64,000 nt of DNA. Source: Mucilaginibacter sp. (lineage in GTDB: Bacteria; Bacteroidota; Bacteroidia; Sphingobacteriales; Sphingobacteriaceae). Numbering within the stretch: the first letter of the stretch is position 1; each line of letters opens with the position of its first letter. Made by a program: the position numbers and the translations under genes. The stretch lies in contig JAQBNZ010000129.1 of the NCBI GenBank assembly GCA_028288285.1, forward strand, positions 31,390 to 95,389. Reading direction: 5' to 3'. Of this stretch, positions 38,927 to 46,045 are shown in pieces. The notes beneath the pieces are model-generated. The model saw nothing but the letters and a program-made list of their open reading frames with translations. It searched no databases and was not told the DNA's origin.

Positions 38927-40183
38927 ATGAATGTGGACAGGATAACAGAGAAATTGAATATTTTAGCAGATGCAGCCAAGTACGATGTATCATGTGCATC
39001 AAGCGGCAGTAAGCGTAAAAACGAAAATAAAGGTTTAGGAAATGCCAGTAATGGTATATGCCATTCGTACACAGAGGATGGACGATGTGTATCCCTGTTA
39101 AAAATATTATTGACCAACCATTGCATTTTTGATTGCGCTTATTGTGTATCGCGCAAAAGCAATGATATCAAACGCGCCGCGTTTACGGTACAGGAAGTGG
39201 TTGACCTAACCATTAACTTTTACCGCCGCAATTATATAGAGGGCCTGTTTTTAAGCTCGGGTATTTTTAAAGATGCTGATTATACTATGGAACGCTTAGT
39301 TCGTATTGCTAAAAAACTGCGTACCGAGCATAATTTTAACGGCTACATTCATCTTAAATCCATCCCCGGTGCAAGTGATGAATTAATGAACGAGGCCGGC
39401 CTGTATGCTGATCGTCTGAGCGTTAATCTGGAAATGCCAACTGAAGCAGGACTAAAGCTATTGGCGCCTGATAAAAACCAGGCTGATATGATAAAACCAA
39501 TGGGATATTTAAAAAACGCTATTATTCAACATACCGAAGAAAAAAAGCTTTTTAAAAAGGCCCCGATATTTGCACCCGCCGGGCAAAGCACACAGGTAAT
39601 TATAGGTGCTACGCCCGAGAATGATAGCCAGGTGTTGCAATCTGCCAATTACTTTTATAAGAACTTTAATTTAAAACGGGTTTACTACTCGGGTTATGTA
39701 CCGGTACTGGCAGATAAGCGGTTGCCAGCCTTAAATACATCAGTACCTATGGTGCGCGAGAACCGGCTTTATCAGGCCGATTGGTTGATGCGGTTTTACG
39801 GTTTTCATGTTAACGAAATAGTGAACACTCAGCAGCCACACCTTGATTTGGATATTGACCCTAAACTGGGCTGGGCCATCCGTAATATGCAGACTTTTCC
39901 GATAGATGTAAACAAGGCCGATCTGCAAATGATATTGCGCGTACCGGGCATTGGGCTATTATCGGCACAAAAAATTGTAAGCGCACGCATATTTGGTAAA
40001 CTTAACTGGGATCAGCTTAAAAAAATGGGAGTGAGCATTAACCGGGCTAAGTATTTCATTACCTGCAAAAGCAACGAATTTGAACGGCGTGACCTTACGG
40101 GTAACAACATTAAGCAGTTTATACTGGCTGCATCGCAAAGCAAATACCTAAAAAATGCACAAACCCAGCTAAGCCTTTTTTAA
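38927..40183 (+). CDS. Putative DNA modification/repair radical SAM protein with HhH motif (TIGR03916-like)
   Basis: AAKYDVSCASSG, GICHS, CIFDCAYC (CX3CX2C), RENRLYQADWL, RVPGIG. Confidence 0.93.
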   Translation: MNVDRITEKLNILADAAKYDVSCASSGSKRKNENKGLGNASNGICHSYTEDGRCVSLLKILLTNHCIFDCAYCVSRKSNDIKRAAFTVQEVVDLTINFYRRNYIEGLFLSSGIFKDADYTMERLVRIAKKLRTEHNFNGYIHLKSIPGASDELMNEAGLYADRLSVNLEMPTEAGLKLLAPDKNQADMIKPMGYLKNAIIQHTEEKKLFKKAPIFAPAGQSTQVIIGATPENDSQVLQSANYFYKNFNLKRVYYSGYVPVLADKRLPALNTSVPMVRENRLYQADWLMRFYGFHVNEIVNTQQPHLDLDIDPKLGWAIRNMQTFPIDVNKADLQMILRVPGIGLLSAQKIVSARIFGKLNWDQLKKMGVSINRAKYFITCKSNEFERRDLTGNNIKQFILAASQSKYLKNAQTQLSLF

Positions 40184-40184
40184 C

Positions 40185-40946
40185 ATGACCACTACCTTAT
40201 TATATGATGGCACATTTGAGGGCCTGCTCACTGCCGTGTTTGAAGTATATGAACATAAACTGGGCTATGTAAAACTGGCGAAGGCAGATAAGCATACCAA
40301 AGCCATGTTTGAGCAGGTAATAAATGTAATTACTGATGAGGTGCGCGCTACCCGTGTGCTAAAAGGATTAAAATTGAAATTATCTCCGATGGGGGTGCAG
40401 CGACTATATGCCGCCCATTTAGCCGAAATGGATGGTGAAGAGAATATATTGTTAGGTTATATTAGGTATGCGTTTGATGCCGGGCAAAATATTGAAGAGG
40501 ATTACGGGAACAAATTTGTAATGCGCGTATCAGAAATGGTGCGCATGGTTCGGCGCGAAAAGCATAGGATGGAGGCTTTTGTACGATTTCAGAAATTAAA
40601 GGACGAAACCTTTTATGCTACCGTTGAGCCCGACTTTAACGTACTGCCGCTACTTATTCGTCATTTTAAAAGTCGTTATGCCGACCAGCGCTGGATAATT
40701 TATGATATGAAACGGCTTTACGGTGTTTATTATGACCTGCACGATACCCAGTATATAACGCTGGATTTTGCTACAAGCAACAAACCCAGCGAAGTAATGG
40801 CAGCCTTTTGCGAAGAGGAGGTTATTTATCAGCACTTGTGGAAGAGCTATTTTCATAGTGTAAACATCACATCAAGGAAAAATACTAAGCTGCATGTACG
40901 CCATGTTCCTAAAAGATATTGGAAGCATTTAACAGAGAAAATTTAA
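40185..40946 (+). CDS. Putative DNA metabolism protein (TIGR03915/DUF4130)
   Basis: YDGTFEGLLTAVF, EKHRMEAFVRF, HFKSRYADQ, PKRYWKHLTE; usual partner of the radical SAM gene. Confidence 0.9.
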   Translation: MTTTLLYDGTFEGLLTAVFEVYEHKLGYVKLAKADKHTKAMFEQVINVITDEVRATRVLKGLKLKLSPMGVQRLYAAHLAEMDGEENILLGYIRYAFDAGQNIEEDYGNKFVMRVSEMVRMVRREKHRMEAFVRFQKLKDETFYATVEPDFNVLPLLIRHFKSRYADQRWIIYDMKRLYGVYYDLHDTQYITLDFATSNKPSEVMAAFCEEEVIYQHLWKSYFHSVNITSRKNTKLHVRHVPKRYWKHLTEKI

Positions 40947-41002
40947 TTTTTTGAATTTTACGCTTTTTTTAATTGAATTAATACAAGAGTGGAAACTCTT
41001 AT

Positions 41003-41113
41003 TGTTAATAATACACTTGTTTATAAGCTCCGATTTTTAAAATGAATTAGCTTAATATCAATACGTACAGTGTGTTAATAACTGTATGATTGATGTTAAT
41101 AACATGTTAAAAA
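41003..41113 (+). repeat. Cluster of TGTTAATAA direct repeats (DnaA-box-like)
   Basis: TGTTAATAA at 41003, 41073 and 41094; TGTTTATAA at 41018; TGTTAAAAA at 41105. Confidence 0.5.
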
Positions 41114-41160
41114 TAAAAATAAAAAAATACTTGACAGATATCCTAATAGTCCCTATATTG
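41109..41160 (+). promoter_or_regulatory. Strong promoter for the putative ncRNA
   Basis: A-tract (UP-like), then TTGACA (41131-36), a 17-nt spacer, and TATATT(G) (41154-60). No ORF lies downstream. Confidence 0.7.
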
Positions 41161-41164
41161 TAAT

Positions 41165-41785
41165 TAACAAGAACGACGTACTTTGACAGCCTTACAGGAT
41201 TACAGAAACTGAATTCGGGTGAACCTTCGGGGGAACTAAAGATCAGGGAAGTGCCTGAATTAATAAAGAGAATAAAAGACGAAAGTAGTTTAACTCGGAA
41301 TTAATTAAAGAGGTATTATTAACACTGCAATACTTTACGGAGAAACGCAGAAGAAATAATGACCATGAAGCAATCGGCGTTAGCAAACAATGAGCAATCA
41401 GCATTCACTATGAATATGATTAATCAACGTTGTACAGATAACGACAGAGTCGACTTCCCCTAGGGAGATTGACAAAATCAATTATCGAAGATACAATGAC
41501 CTAACCGGAAACCGCAAGGAAGAAGGATAGTGTTCGGAGTTAAACGATATTGATGGAGTTACCTCCGCAAGGAGACAGACAAAGTCCGCATTAAGTCAAC
41601 ATTTGATTATATCAGCATTCAAAGTAATAAAGATGAATCAGCGTTAGCAATAACAAAGAGAAGATCAGGTCGGTTAATTTACACAAAACTTGTTAGCTTC
41701 TGAGTGGCTATGGTCATTCATGAGGTCAGGAAACGGAAGAAGAATCGAAAGAGGAAGCTTCCGTTTTCGATTTTATAAGGTTTTT
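41165..41785 (+). ncRNA. Putative large (~600 nt) structured non-coding RNA of unrecognised class
   Basis: No plus-strand ORF >=60 aa. Own promoter, boxA-like GTACTTTGACA, UUCG/GAAA/GCAA-capped hairpins, long-range helices (41358-66/41710-18, 41288-96/41537-45, 41421-27/41603-09), and a 5'-3' closing helix (41188-201/41769-82). Confidence 0.75.
41743..41776 (+). terminator. Possible terminator/3' hairpin of the ncRNA
   Basis: AATCGAAAG-A-GGA-AGCT-TCC-G-TTTTCGATT followed by TTAT. It competes with alternative pairings. Confidence 0.45.
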
Positions 41786-41854
41786 GGCATAGCAAATTGT
41801 CAGTACCTGCGAACCATCATAGTTTAAATGCCGCCGTCGCTCGACTCCCAGCTC

Positions 41855-42331
41855 ACAGGTGTTCGGAAGATAGTTGAATAGCTCCTCGGGTGAGTCAACT
41901 AAGCCATAGTTCCACAGTTTTAATGTTTCTTGATTGCCGTTGACTTTAGTCAACGGTTAAATGCAAATGATATTGGCTTTAGCCAAACAGATGAATGTGG
42001 CTAAAGCCATTCTTTACACTTTACTATCCGCCCCATAAATGGGACGGCAATGATATATCTAATATTCTCTGCCATCGTTTGGCTCCAGCCTACAGGTGTT
42101 CGGAAGATAGTCGAATAAGCTCCTCGGCAATTAACTCACCCCGACTACAATATGCTGGCGGTCGAGCGAAGGAAAGACCGGGTGAGTCAACTAAGCCATA
42201 GTTCCACAGTTTTAATGTTTCTTGATTGCCGTTGACTTTAGTCAACGGTTAAATGCAAAATGATATTGGCTTTAGCCAAACAGGTGAATGTGGCTAAAGC
42301 CATTCCTTACACTTTTACTATCCGCTCCATA
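41855..42331. repeat. Tandem duplication of composite REP-like elements (copy 1 41855-42037, copy 2 42092-42331)
   Basis: Near-identical copies carry the palindromes CCGTTGACTTTAGTCAACGG, GGCTTTAGCC and GGCTAAAGCC. Copy 2 has an extra ~52 nt (about 42128-42179). Confidence 0.85.
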
Positions 42332-42422
42332 GGCCGGGCGACTGTTTTAACTTAGTATTTTCCCTTACAACTTTACCAATATTTTCAATTACTCCCAACC
42401 AAAAACCCTACTTTAGTGTTCT

Positions 42423-43775
42423 ATGATAAAGGATACTACTGATAAATTGGACAGGAAGAAAAAAATATTTGTACTGGATACCTCGGTTATCCTATATGAT
42501 CATAACGCGTTTGAAAATTTCCAGGAGCATGATGTAGCTATCCCCATACAGGTGCTGGAAGAGCTGGACAATATGAAGAGCGGTAACGATACCCGTAACT
42601 TTGAGGCCCGCAGTTTTATCAGGCTAATGGATGATATGTCGCGTAACCGCCTCATTAATCAGTGGCTTCCGCTTAACGGCAAAAGTAAAGGCTGTTTTAA
42701 GGTGATAATGGATGTAAAGAACAGCAGTGCCGATGCCGAAGTTGTTTTTGGTTCAGAAAAAATAGACCACCGCATATTAAACGCCGCCCTGGGTGTGCAG
42801 TTTGAGCACCCTGATAGAAAAGTAATACTGGTTTCAAAAGATATATGCCTGCGGCTAAAGGCAAAATCACTTAACCTTAATGCTGAGGATTATGAAACAG
42901 GTAAGGTTAAAAACCTTGATGAACTTTATAGCGGCAAAACTGTACTAAACAAAGTAAGCGAAAAGCTGCTGGGCAAACTAAATAAAAATGATACCCTTAC
43001 CGGAGGAGAACTGGAAATAGAACCCAAAGCCGGTAATCAGTTTTATGTATTAAACAGTAAAAATGGTACAGCATCTGCCTTTTACAATTCGCAAAGCGGC
43101 CAGGCAGAGAGAGTGACCGAGCAGCCTGCCCTTAACATTTATCCCCGCAATTTAGAACAGGCCTTTGCCATACATGCACTGCTGCACCCGGATATTAAAC
43201 TGGTAACCATACAGGGCAATGCAGGTACCGGTAAAACGCTTTTAGCGCTGGCAAGCGCGCTGGAACAGCGTAAGCATTACCGCCAAATATTTGTTACCCG
43301 CCCAATTGTACCCTTAAGTAATAAGGATATAGGCTTTTTGCCCGGCGATGTTAAATCAAAGATAGACCCGTATATGGCGCCCATTTGGGATAACCTTAAA
43401 TTTATTAAAGACCAGTTTGCCGAAGATGAAAAGATGCAGGCAAAAATTGATGAATTGGTTGCAAATGATAAAATATCCATCACCCCGCTGGCCTTTATAC
43501 GTGGGCGCACACTAAGCAAGATATTTTTTATTGTTGATGAAGCGCAGAACCTTACACCCCACGAAGTGAAAACTATTATATCACGCGCTGGCGAAAATAG
43601 TAAATTTATATTCACAGGTGATATTTACCAGATAGATACCCCGTACCTGGATGCGGAAAGTAATGGCCTGTCTTATCTGATAGATAAGGCCAAAGGACAT
43701 CCGTTGTATGCCCACATTACTCTGCAAAAAGGGGAGAGGAGCGAATTAGCCAATTTGGCTAATGATTTATTGTAA
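42423..43775 (+). CDS. PIN-domain PhoH family protein (PhoH2-like)
   Basis: N-terminal PIN (VLDTSV, VLEELD, DHRIL, VSKD), GNAGTGKT, IGFLPG, FIRGRTL, VDEAQN, GDIYQID. Confidence 0.93.
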   Translation: MIKDTTDKLDRKKKIFVLDTSVILYDHNAFENFQEHDVAIPIQVLEELDNMKSGNDTRNFEARSFIRLMDDMSRNRLINQWLPLNGKSKGCFKVIMDVKNSSADAEVVFGSEKIDHRILNAALGVQFEHPDRKVILVSKDICLRLKAKSLNLNAEDYETGKVKNLDELYSGKTVLNKVSEKLLGKLNKNDTLTGGELEIEPKAGNQFYVLNSKNGTASAFYNSQSGQAERVTEQPALNIYPRNLEQAFAIHALLHPDIKLVTIQGNAGTGKTLLALASALEQRKHYRQIFVTRPIVPLSNKDIGFLPGDVKSKIDPYMAPIWDNLKFIKDQFAEDEKMQAKIDELVANDKISITPLAFIRGRTLSKIFFIVDEAQNLTPHEVKTIISRAGENSKFIFTGDIYQIDTPYLDAESNGLSYLIDKAKGHPLYAHITLQKGERSELANLANDLL

Positions 43776-43798
43776 GAGGCAGTCACCTTAAATTTTAT

Positions 43799-43828
43799 TG
43801 TCAATTGCGAGCGCAGCGCGGCAATCTC
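43799..43828. repeat. GTCATTGCGAG-type REP-like half element
   Basis: TGTCAATTGCGAGCGCAGCGCGGCAATCTC between convergent genes; a fuller relative lies at 54756-54868. Confidence 0.6.
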
Positions 43829-43876: not shown

Positions 43877-46045
43877 TTACCTTAAGGCATTCTCTGTTAC
43901 CTTGGCTATATCAATGCTAATTTTATTAATAAAGCCCAGTTGCTCCTTCATCAGTATATCATCTGCCGTAAGCGGTATCTTTTCAGTTTCTGGTTTTATA
44001 ACTTCGGCTTTAACAGTTTCCGGCTTAGCGGCAGGTGAGGTAATAGTTTCACCTTTAAGTTTTTTATTTGTTTCTTTTAATACGGCAATGCTGCGTTTAA
44101 CCAGCTTTAATGTATCAGCATGTGGTTTCTGAGGGCCCGTTCTTATCAGTGCCGAAGCTATATTAGCTGTATATGACGACAGGATATGGTTCAGTACCAC
44201 AAACTTGTGAATATCTTTAATGTTGCGCTGTTTGCTTTTGGGTTCAGATGTCATGCGCTCAAAAGTGGCAGATAAGTTGGCCGAGTTTACATAAACATCT
44301 TTGCGGGCAAGCTTATACTCAGTAATGCTTACTTCCTTGCCTGCAATGCTTTCTGATATTTTTTTAAGATAGTTGATGTTAGCCGTAATAACCGACTCTA
44401 ACGTTTCTTTTATCTGCTCAAATTCCCATGTAGGGAATATAATATAACTGGCAACAAGTGCTATACTTGATCCTATAAGCGTATCAATAATGCGCTCCTG
44501 GAAAATGTTGATCTGACCAAGTCCTAAAAACTTAAACAGTATCAGCACATAAGGTGTCATGAAAATAACGCTCACTACATAGTTTAGCCTTAAAAAGCTG
44601 TATGCACCTACCATCAATACCACCAGTAATATAAATTGTACGGTTTTGTCGGGTATAAAAGTTAGTATCAATATACCTATTACACCGCCGCCAATGGTTC
44701 CTATCAATCTTTGATAATTACGCTGTTTTGAAAGACTAAAGCCGGGTTTTAGTATCACTATAATGGTAAGCAACACCCAATAGCTATGGCCGCCTAATGA
44801 GATATATTTAGAGGTGATATAACCTATTAAACAAACTAATGATACCCTTAACGAATGTTTAAAAGTAGCTGATTTTAACGAAAGGTTATCAAAAATAATA
44901 TGGGGTGCATAATCCTGATGGGTGACAAATTTAGAATACTCAACATCATCGTCTGGAGTGCCAATTAAACTTTCAGACGCTTTGGAGTGATAGTATTTAT
45001 AAATGTTTGATATGCTTTTAGTTAAGTCGCGCAGGTTTATCAAAATCTTCTTTAACACCAGGTTGCTTGTTTCTTTGTCATCTACACCAACTTCGTCAAT
45101 TTTTAGCTTTAATTGCTCCAGTCTAAACCCCAGATTACTTGTTTTTTCGGGCCTTGAATTGGCAAGAATGGAATAGCCAACATTATCCAGCTCATCGGCT
45201 ACATGATTCAAAAAATCTGATATCTCATGTAACACCCCCGTATCTTTAAACTTTTCGCGTATATAGGCATAATCATAATGAGTAGCCATTATTTGCTCAA
45301 ACATATCAACCAGGTCAATAAATGTAAGTACCAGTATCCGGCTTGCAGCGGTTGATTCCTTTACCATCAGTCGGCTTTTAAAAAGCAGTTCGCGAACAGC
45401 ATCCTGATGATTGCTTACCTTTATTTGTTGCAACACCAGCTTGCGGTAATTCTCATCAATATCTACCTCTGGCCTGTAAAAGTCTGCCTTAATTCGCAAA
45501 AATCTGGCAATGTCGGCAACGTTTTCACCCAGCGTTTGCTGGGCCGCGCGATAAGGGCGTATGCCAAAAAATATCATACTGAAAGCCATATACCACAAAC
45601 CGCCTGCTAAAACAGTAACGCAAAACAGGGGCAGCTCCCGCGGAGGTATGTCTTTATCCAACATAAATATCATTATCAGCAGCGAACTTGTACCTACAGA
45701 TGCAGCCCGGTTGCCGTACACATTAAACATGGAAAATATGAAGGAGAATAGCGTAATCTCTAATCCAAGTGCGTAAACGTTAAGCCGGGCAAAGCCGGTT
45801 ATCATAGCTACAGCAAAAAGGCATAAATTACCAATGGCCATTGCATTACGCTTTTGTGATACAGGGCCGGGGCTATCAATAGTGCATATACATAATGCGC
45901 CCAGAGAGAGGGTGAGGCCCAGGTTAAAATTACCCAATTGCATCATCACTAACGATGGCAGCAAAATACCGGCAGATATGCGCAAACCGTCAGAAAAATA
46001 CTGGCTGTAAAAAAAGCTTTTTATTTCTCTTTTATAATTGTTCAT
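43877..46045 (-). CDS. FUSC family membrane protein (YccS/YhfK-like)
   Basis: N-terminal TM block, FKHSLRV, HSYWVLLT..KPG, QRLIGT, ERIIDTLIG. Confidence 0.9.
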   Translation of the reverse strand: MNNYKREIKSFFYSQYFSDGLRISAGILLPSLVMMQLGNFNLGLTLSLGALCICTIDSPGPVSQKRNAMAIGNLCLFAVAMITGFARLNVYALGLEITLFSFIFSMFNVYGNRAASVGTSSLLIMIFMLDKDIPPRELPLFCVTVLAGGLWYMAFSMIFFGIRPYRAAQQTLGENVADIARFLRIKADFYRPEVDIDENYRKLVLQQIKVSNHQDAVRELLFKSRLMVKESTAASRILVLTFIDLVDMFEQIMATHYDYAYIREKFKDTGVLHEISDFLNHVADELDNVGYSILANSRPEKTSNLGFRLEQLKLKIDEVGVDDKETSNLVLKKILINLRDLTKSISNIYKYYHSKASESLIGTPDDDVEYSKFVTHQDYAPHIIFDNLSLKSATFKHSLRVSLVCLIGYITSKYISLGGHSYWVLLTIIVILKPGFSLSKQRNYQRLIGTIGGGVIGILILTFIPDKTVQFILLVVLMVGAYSFLRLNYVVSVIFMTPYVLILFKFLGLGQINIFQERIIDTLIGSSIALVASYIIFPTWEFEQIKETLESVITANINYLKKISESIAGKEVSITEYKLARKDVYVNSANLSATFERMTSEPKSKQRNIKDIHKFVVLNHILSSYTANIASALIRTGPQKPHADTLKLVKRSIAVLKETNKKLKGETITSPAAKPETVKAEVIKPETEKIPLTADDILMKEQLGFINKISIDIAKVTENALR

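Follow-up and report, generated by a model that had tools for sequence, protein, structure and literature searches.

A large conserved RNA of Mucilaginibacter that very probably works with the PIN-PhoH enzyme PhoH2

The stretch of DNA analysed here (the window) comprises 64,000 nucleotides (nt) of Mucilaginibacter sp. (assembly GCA_028288285.1, contig JAQBNZ010000129.1, positions 31,390 to 95,389 of the forward strand) and contains the locus of a non-coding RNA (ncRNA) of about 609 nt. The locus is single-copy in the host genome and is flanked by a radical-SAM/TIGR03915 repair gene pair (38927-40946) and by an open reading frame (ORF) of 450 amino acids (aa) at 42423-43775, identified as phoH2. 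The element is a discrete RNA of soil Bacteroidota that is conserved, covarying and non-coding, and it very probably works with PhoH2 in some way. This link, which is the main clue to function, was missed in the preliminary description of the DNA, where the region had been noticed as a large structured RNA. The features of the locus are the following:

41131..41161, plus strand: promoter-like site with -35 box TTGACA, 17-nt spacer and -10 box TATATT(GT); the boxes recur with equal spacing before the homologs
41166..41774, plus strand: the ncRNA, long form, about 609 nt; boundaries from homology and metatranscriptome contigs, both ends estimated to within a few bases
41166..41187, plus strand: near-invariant 5' segment, holding the 5' strands of P1 and P2 around a conserved internal loop
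41166-71 / 41689-94, plus strand: P1, the terminal helix
41178-87 / 41673-82, plus strand: P2
41189..41314, plus strand: P3 domain, with covariation; helix P3 (41189-93/41310-14) encloses P4/P5 (UUCG loop) and P6 (GAAA loop)
41315..41360, plus strand: P7/P8 arm with UACG loop
41361..41671, plus strand: P9 arm; helix P9 (41361-68/41665-71) carries an insertion of about 296 nt (41369-41664)
41696..41726, plus strand: P10 hairpin with UAYG loop
41729..41774, plus strand: P11 hairpin with conserved UC-GNAA-GA tip and U-tract
42409..42416, plus strand: promoter-like TACTTTAG, with 6 nt between it and the phoH2 start codon
42423..43775, plus strand: phoH2, PIN_4 ribonuclease (RNase) and PhoH helicase, 450 aa

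The promoter-like site TTGACA-17-TATATT (41131-41159) scores 11/12 against the promoter consensus, in agreement with the own promoter proposed in the preliminary description. Such sites also arise in shuffles (8 observed in the region versus 4.5+/-2.4) and the promoter call therefore rests on conservation, both boxes being kept upstream of the homologs. At the other end, P11 and its U-tract are likely an intrinsic terminator, judging from the sequence; a simple terminator scan did not flag P11. The plus-strand preference for structure and the absence of a plus-strand ORF, both claimed earlier, were borne out: the plus-strand fold has -150.3 kcal/mol and a z of -4.85 versus -2.48 for the minus strand (20 shuffles per strand), and no plus-strand ORF of at least 50 aa lies within 41165-41785. 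A plus-strand ORF of 34 aa starting at 41359 is not conserved, and the minus strand contains one of 53 aa (41243-41404). A conserved small ORF was rejected, as the conserved-ATG peptides span 2-99 aa with frameshifts (61 of 142 copies with the pattern); the lengths of the 142 copies divide 60/44/38 modulo 3.

Part of the RNA was identified in 23 runs from 15 studies, mostly soil metatranscriptomes. In four runs (four studies) mapped over 39800-43800, contigs were present only in the five bins of 41140-41809, with the insertion covered, and the three flanking genes had no contig cover. The RNase P locus presented the same pattern of cover with bare flanks in the same runs, which fits the earlier proposal of a transcript made like a stable RNA. 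The pieces measure 107-224 nt with 0-3 differences, the first one lying at 41168. These runs were picked for containing the stretch, and their contigs come from relatives and not from this strain.

The comparative fold comprises P1, the conserved internal loop, P2 and a junction with P3 (P4-P6), P7/P8 and P9, followed after P1 by P10 and P11. For the 92 pairs of the core, pairing in 23 long forms reaches 90.8%; 37 of these pairs have double-sided changes, and the double-change cells number 124 versus 46+/-6 in shuffles; slid controls are 31-50% paired, a comparison that favours the structure because it was drawn on one of the 23 sequences tested. By helix, pairing is 100% in P3, 98% in P7 and 91% in P9. 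In 66 diverse short forms a consensus of 63 pairs is 85.5% paired, with 562 double-change cells versus 217+/-18, in an alignment built for this analysis with gappy columns removed. All alignments were made on sequence only, without a structure-aware aligner. The core fold covaries in long and short forms alike, covariation being one of the checks named in the preliminary description, and the single-sequence fold of the window copy backs P1, P6-P8, P10 and P11.

Seven complementary pairs listed in that description were looked up and all of them lie where they had been placed, with uneven conservation among the 23 long forms. TAATCAA/TTGATTA and ATCAAT/ATTGAT present double-sided changes; AATTCGGGT/GCCTGAATT (85% paired, but with no such change), AATGACCAT/ATGGTCATT (77% paired), AGGTATT/AATACTT (74%) and GAAGC/GCTTC (63%) were not confirmed as conserved helices. 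The supposed pairing of the two ends (41188-201 with 41769-82) occurs in 59% of cells, the true terminal helix joining the 5' end with 41689-41694 and not with the 3' tail. The bases of the unconfirmed helices go into the better-conserved P3, P7 and P9.

The window copy corresponds to the common form plus the insertion of about 296 nt at the tip of P9, where short homologs have one GNRA hairpin. The insertion holds 6 copies of the 9-nt internal-loop motif RTC-RRY-RTT, with 0.07 expected and 0 of 5000 resamples reaching 5; long forms carry a mean of 4.4 copies and 300-400-nt forms 0.07 per RNA. The insertion is likely an irregular rod capped by several hairpins, with less certainty than the core fold. 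For its outer modules a nested irregular rod presents 28 covarying cells versus 17+/-3 and 78% pairing, and the folds of individual insertions divide between the rod and separate hairpins. An arrangement of nine separate hairpins was rejected for the outer modules, where local hairpins lack covariation (3 cells versus 1.7). The core tree leaves the origin of the long form unsettled, since the smallest clade with all 24 long forms has a support of 0.23 and includes 14 other rows.

Collection of homologs, as proposed in the preliminary description, recovered the RNA by BLAST from 66 of 401 genomes of the family (Sphingobacteriaceae, by record titles), including 49 of the 55 others of the genus. 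A search model (R1) of the 3' 124 positions, which has only 4 pairs and can overlook distant members, identified it in 50 of 151 family genomes and 14 of 34 genera; a sample of the phylum with 149 genomes from other families gave no match. Among named records, the 5' motif occurs mainly in Mucilaginibacter, with Daejeonella and unclassified Bacteroidota as further carriers; matches to this motif in other phyla were attributed to chance. In all, 142 distinct full-length homologs of 258-620 nt were obtained within the window's family, four further matches being excluded for want of a 5' match; another weak match was discarded because it sits in coding-like sequence. As 105 of the 142 measure at most 400 nt (mostly 340-380 nt) and 24 at least 595 nt, the size of about 600 nt does not hold as a trait of the class. 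Inspected homologs share the promoter-like box pair, a 5' segment that hardly varies and, on the 3' side, two hairpins with a U-tract after them. The natural variants set off a minimal core from optional domains: the smallest forms, of 258-268 nt and observed at six loci, keep P1-P3, P8, P10 and P11 with the other arms shrunk, and are a useful minimal construct. Two or three copies are present in 8 of the 50 RNA-bearing genomes. Tandem diverged copies, each with its own promoter-like site, were observed at sixteen loci, the paralogs varying in the 5' internal loop and in length. Carriage on mobile elements was rejected: the RNA was not matched by blastn in phage and plasmid collections, and 16 and 8 pattern matches in viral contigs were ascribed to chance. 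Exact peptide patterns, whose reach is close relatives only, identified no phoH2 relative in viral contigs.

The neighbouring enzyme contains the PIN acidic residues D19/E47/D115/D140, Walker A and Walker B, all invariant across in-family and out-of-family PhoH2 orthologs. Only 11 residues are family-specific and conserved, and there is no extra domain. By eye, the ATG of most in-family phoH2 genes is preceded at only 5-8 nt by TAnnTT(A/T)G, which resembles a promoter (window 42409-42423), a type of pattern that precedes 3.9% of 2749 host-genome ORFs; this suggests a separate and nearly leaderless phoH2 mRNA. A search for a solved structure of PhoH2 or of PhoH2 with RNA returned only 3B85.

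Within the same 151 family genomes phoH2 was identified in 54 and the RNA in 50. All 50 carriers have phoH2, and the RNA is present in 0 of 97 genomes without a phoH2 match. In patchy genera the presence of the two agrees exactly (2/4, 2/3, 1/2 and 8/9), and the genus has six BLAST-negative genomes, of which the five tested contain no RNA and only a single-domain PhoH. Among the four phoH2-only genomes, two have a weak, complete-looking RNA copy immediately before phoH2, a third is an assembly of 960 contigs, and the fourth (60% identity) yielded no RNA. Because related genomes are not independent of each other and a deletion takes out neighbouring genes jointly, no p-value is given for this co-occurrence.

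Regarding placement, the RNA lies upstream of phoH2 within 1.5 kb in 32 of the 50 genomes (26 within 300 nt and 6 at 300-1500 nt), divergent from it, head-to-head, in 11, and distant or unlinked in 7 (3 further away and 4 on other contigs). The link thus survives inversion, which argues for action in trans, the divergent and unlinked cases carrying the argument. A cis-acting leader, attenuator or riboswitch controlling phoH2 would fit the 26 copies that end within 300 nt of the gene on the same strand with a terminator-like hairpin, and a related short motif in the phoH2 leaders of other families. Since 11 of 50 copies face away from phoH2 and several are unlinked, the RNA is not a leader; in the window a repeat of about 500 nt separates it from phoH2, which has its own promoter-like box. 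This explanation is largely refuted and retains only a trace of probability.

The short motif in question, [ACG]GT[AT]CT[AT]T, occurs within the first 25 nt of the RNA in 124 of 142 copies and in 19 of 28 out-of-family phoH2 leaders, versus 3.2% in the local and 1.8% in the genome background; it was chosen after looking, and 16 of the 19 leaders come from one family. It is a lead, and could also be a DNA site. In family f23, which has no large RNA, a conserved GCCGTTCTTTAACATCATCTAC followed by a hairpin was observed about 60 nt before the phoH2 start. This leader motif is a candidate cis-regulatory site with a core in common with the RNA 5' segment.

The near-invariant 5' segment also bears on a derivation from, or mimicry of, transfer-messenger RNA (tmRNA), in which the RNA would be connected with ribosome rescue and PhoH2 would serve as nuclease. 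Positions 41169-41190 match the host tmRNA 5' end (L194:1501-1522) at 12 of 22 nt in register, with a random P of about 0.0014 for one register; the family mean is 10.9, distant homologs reach 8.9 and random sequence 5.2, and the 3' hairpin resembles a T-arm by eye. However, this 5'-end comparison was made after looking, the shared bases are paired in P2 here, the hidden Markov model of the family has no match on 4 tmRNAs and no Rfam tmRNA match was obtained. A normal tmRNA exists elsewhere in the genome, and the RNA presents neither an acceptor/CCA end nor a conserved tag ORF. The identity is probably chance, and a relation to tmRNA is very improbable. As a side observation, the host tmRNA is split across two contig ends, for which reason ARAGORN misses it, and is whole in four relatives; one of the breaks is followed by integrase-island-like sequence, by position only.

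Across the window no Rfam family reached the gathering score, the best E-value within 40940-42430 being 1.1, and nothing of note appeared in six homolog loci. The Rfam comparison foreseen in the preliminary description leaves standing its reading of a large Bacteroidota RNA, conserved, covarying, non-coding and without Rfam family. RNase P RNA was discarded, as the RF00010 match lies on another contig with none at this locus, and so was an antisense or guide role, the longest match in the own genome not being above 16 nt. GGA motifs, an excess of which marks CsrB-type sponges, number 15 against 13.7 expected, which sets the RNA apart from such sponges. 6S RNA is a rod with a central bubble, near-universal in the clade. 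A 6S-like decoy of RNA polymerase, with a link to phoH2 that is positional only, would agree with the strong promoter, the irregular terminal duplex and the lack of an RF00013 match in the host genome (76% complete), but the RNA was not found in 101 of 151 family genomes, is lost with phoH2 even inside one genus and has a branched, not rod-shaped, fold; there is hardly any likelihood in its favour.

A related RNA was recently nominated as COMPASS cluster #1,412,455 (Sun et al., bioRxiv 10.64898/2026.10.21.760802, 22 Oct 2026), a 357-nt multistem PhoH2-adjacent RNA of Bacteroidota to which the available part of that preprint assigns no function. There, 148 of 326 members are adjacent to a PIN_4+PhoH gene and 228 are within 5 kb, and expression was reported in Pedobacter mucosus, with coverage in nine libraries. 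The window RNA likewise belongs to Bacteroidota, is multistem, has no Rfam family and lies beside a PIN_4+PhoH gene; 357 nt is the length of the short form, the window copy reaching about 609 nt by insertion. From description, neighbour and length the two families are very probably the same, since the RNA occupies the stretch upstream of phoH2 in most adjacent in-family cases, and the window RNA is probably an expanded variant of the nominated family. The possibly undescribed class of the preliminary description had thus, very probably, already been nominated. The accessible preprint text mentions neither the long form, divergent loci, co-loss, tandem copies, the leader motif nor a mechanism; its figure S14, with 27 PhoH2-associated motifs, may include the long form. 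Relative to that text the additions here are genome-level co-loss, trans action, a covarying core, a shared leader motif and the expanded form. Literature searches, with most subscription papers outside their reach, gave no other description of the RNA, and term searches in the accessible parts of PMC11109978 and 10.64898/2026.09.22.753630 gave nothing relevant. The likeness to ROOL, GOLLD and OLE drawn earlier comes down to size: the window copy is of about 600 nt, ornate and apparently abundant as they are, whereas it has no Rfam threshold score, most members of its family measure 340-380 nt and none was found in phage or plasmid collections. An expanded form of ROOL/OLE size is a ready target for cryo-electron microscopy.

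PhoH2 is widespread in bacteria, archaea and phages and its biology is poorly understood (PMC7390352). The enzyme is described as a hexameric helicase/RNase that is sequence-specific and loads on single-stranded loops, and in mycobacteria a protein antitoxin, PhoAT, is encoded upstream of it (PMC7390352; PMC5499597; PMC7824862). The locus described here resembles PhoAT-PhoH2, a type II toxin-antitoxin system with a helicase, in comprising a PIN-PhoH enzyme with intact motifs and a partner encoded just upstream; it differs in that the partner is an RNA, for which a separate promoter and terminator are predicted, and the window PhoH2 scores 253 on NF053827, where the cut-off is 680.

The most probable function, proposed tentatively, is that of an abundant trans-acting decoy or inhibitor of PhoH2, all steps beyond co-occurrence being inference. 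The proposal is based on a discrete conserved gene without a conserved ORF, a covarying fold, contigs in RNA libraries whose flanks are bare, a one-way dependence on phoH2 and independence of orientation. The RNA would be transcribed from its own promoter to its own terminator and would contact PhoH2 at the 5' end, through the near-invariant segment and the internal loop between P1 and P2; PhoH2 so occupied would not unwind or cut cellular RNA, and would be released, under stress for instance, once the RNA disappears, is remodelled or is out-titrated. The RNA would take the role of the small PhoAT protein of mycobacteria (the tight loci have no room for a small ORF between RNA and phoH2), and the gene duplications and the insertion of about 296 nt would raise dose, size or avidity. 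A titrating ligand is the simplest reading because an apparently abundant RNA in the place of the antitoxin has an invariant loop, extra copies and variable expansions.

Type III toxin-antitoxin systems (ToxIN, CptIN and TenpIN) are formed by an RNA gene, a terminator and then an RNase gene. The present locus shares the order of RNA gene, terminator-like hairpin and RNase gene. Differences are the core, which is without tandem short pseudoknot repeats (a repeated motif is present only in long forms); the enzyme, which is PIN_4+PhoH and not ToxN, CptN or TenpN, PADLOC giving only 66-aa helicase-motif matches; and the variable placement of the RNA together with the separate promoter-like box of phoH2, so that joint transcription of RNA and gene is not required as it is in type III systems.

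Several observations weigh against the RNA as a decoy of PhoH2. The binding of PhoH2 by the RNA is itself one of the inferred steps. Deletion of phoH2 in M. smegmatis is reported to have left growth normal, and PhoH2 may hence not be a toxin that requires an inhibitor. Orthologs of phoH2 are present in 41 genomes of other families and the RNA model matches none of them, 20 of 28 such loci having been rescanned without filters with the same outcome; PhoH2 therefore does not universally need the RNA. Inside the family, one genome has phoH2 but appears to be without the RNA. Joint loss is trivial for genes that lie side by side, and the cases that bear on co-loss beyond this, unlinked or distant, number only about 4. 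The RTC-RRY-RTT motif, being nearly absent from short forms, is not a universal PhoH2 binding site; P3-P5 and P9 have near-zero probability in the single-sequence fold of the window copy; and the metatranscriptome contigs reveal neither strand, exact ends nor level. Finally, the elaborate conserved fold exceeds the needs of a simple decoy and fits a scaffold equally.

In the scaffold explanation the RNA would belong to a PhoH2 ribonucleoprotein as a structural or activating subunit, holding the helicase ring and PIN domains or directing them to substrates, for instance stalled ribosomes or structured RNAs. Y RNA serves Ro60-PNPase in a comparable role; it has a bulged stem closed by its 5' end and is associated with an enzyme of RNA decay. 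The window RNA shares both traits, but a TROVE protein was identified in only 1 of 5 RNA-bearing genomes tested, and the RNA is much larger and has two hairpins after the closing stem. The same co-occurrence speaks for a scaffold, as do the multi-domain fold, the conserved GNRA/UNCG tips, the expansion segments at fixed sites and the other RNA architectures beside other PhoH2 lineages (bioRxiv 10.64898/2026.10.21.760802). Considering the ortholog genomes of other families without an RNA match, the few family-specific residues of PhoH2 without an extra domain, and the lack of a variable single-stranded guide or of any match above 16 nt in the own genome, a scaffold is judged unlikely.

The one-way dependence, with the RNA never without phoH2 and phoH2 often without the RNA, is also compatible with an RNA that has a function of its own (storage, ROOL/GOLLD-like self-assembly or sequestering of another protein) and has PhoH2 as dedicated maturation or turnover enzyme; the repeated motif of the long forms could make RNA-RNA contacts. 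However, no other gene was seen to stay linked. The upstream neighbours of the RNA alternate between the repair gene pair and a transporter, in a linkage comparison that did not include a genome-wide profile for other partner genes. Such an independent function is quite improbable.

Regarding the origin of the system, PhoH2 could be here a ribonucleoprotein whose large RNA was born from an autoregulatory phoH2-leader motif and is now a free-standing controller of the hexameric helicase-RNase, a somewhat unlikely history. If true, no earlier RNA antitoxin or scaffold would precede it among PIN-domain enzymes, and the form of about 610 nt, in which the internal-loop motif is multiplied, would capture an RNA in the course of its expansion into a multivalent or self-assembling particle. 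A dedicated RNA partner would provide a direct handle on PhoH2: one RNA, one enzyme and culturable hosts.

Two further observations concern the surroundings of the pair. Between the RNA and phoH2 the window contains a tandem duplication of about 293 nt of palindromic, REP-like elements (41834-42340), parts of which recur in 39 BLAST matches on 16 contigs of the host genome. A YccS/YhfK-type transporter gene lies 3' of phoH2 in the window (43877-46045), and in many other genera upstream of the RNA and divergent from it; as its position differs among genera, the RNA and phoH2 have been kept together through rearrangement of the locus.
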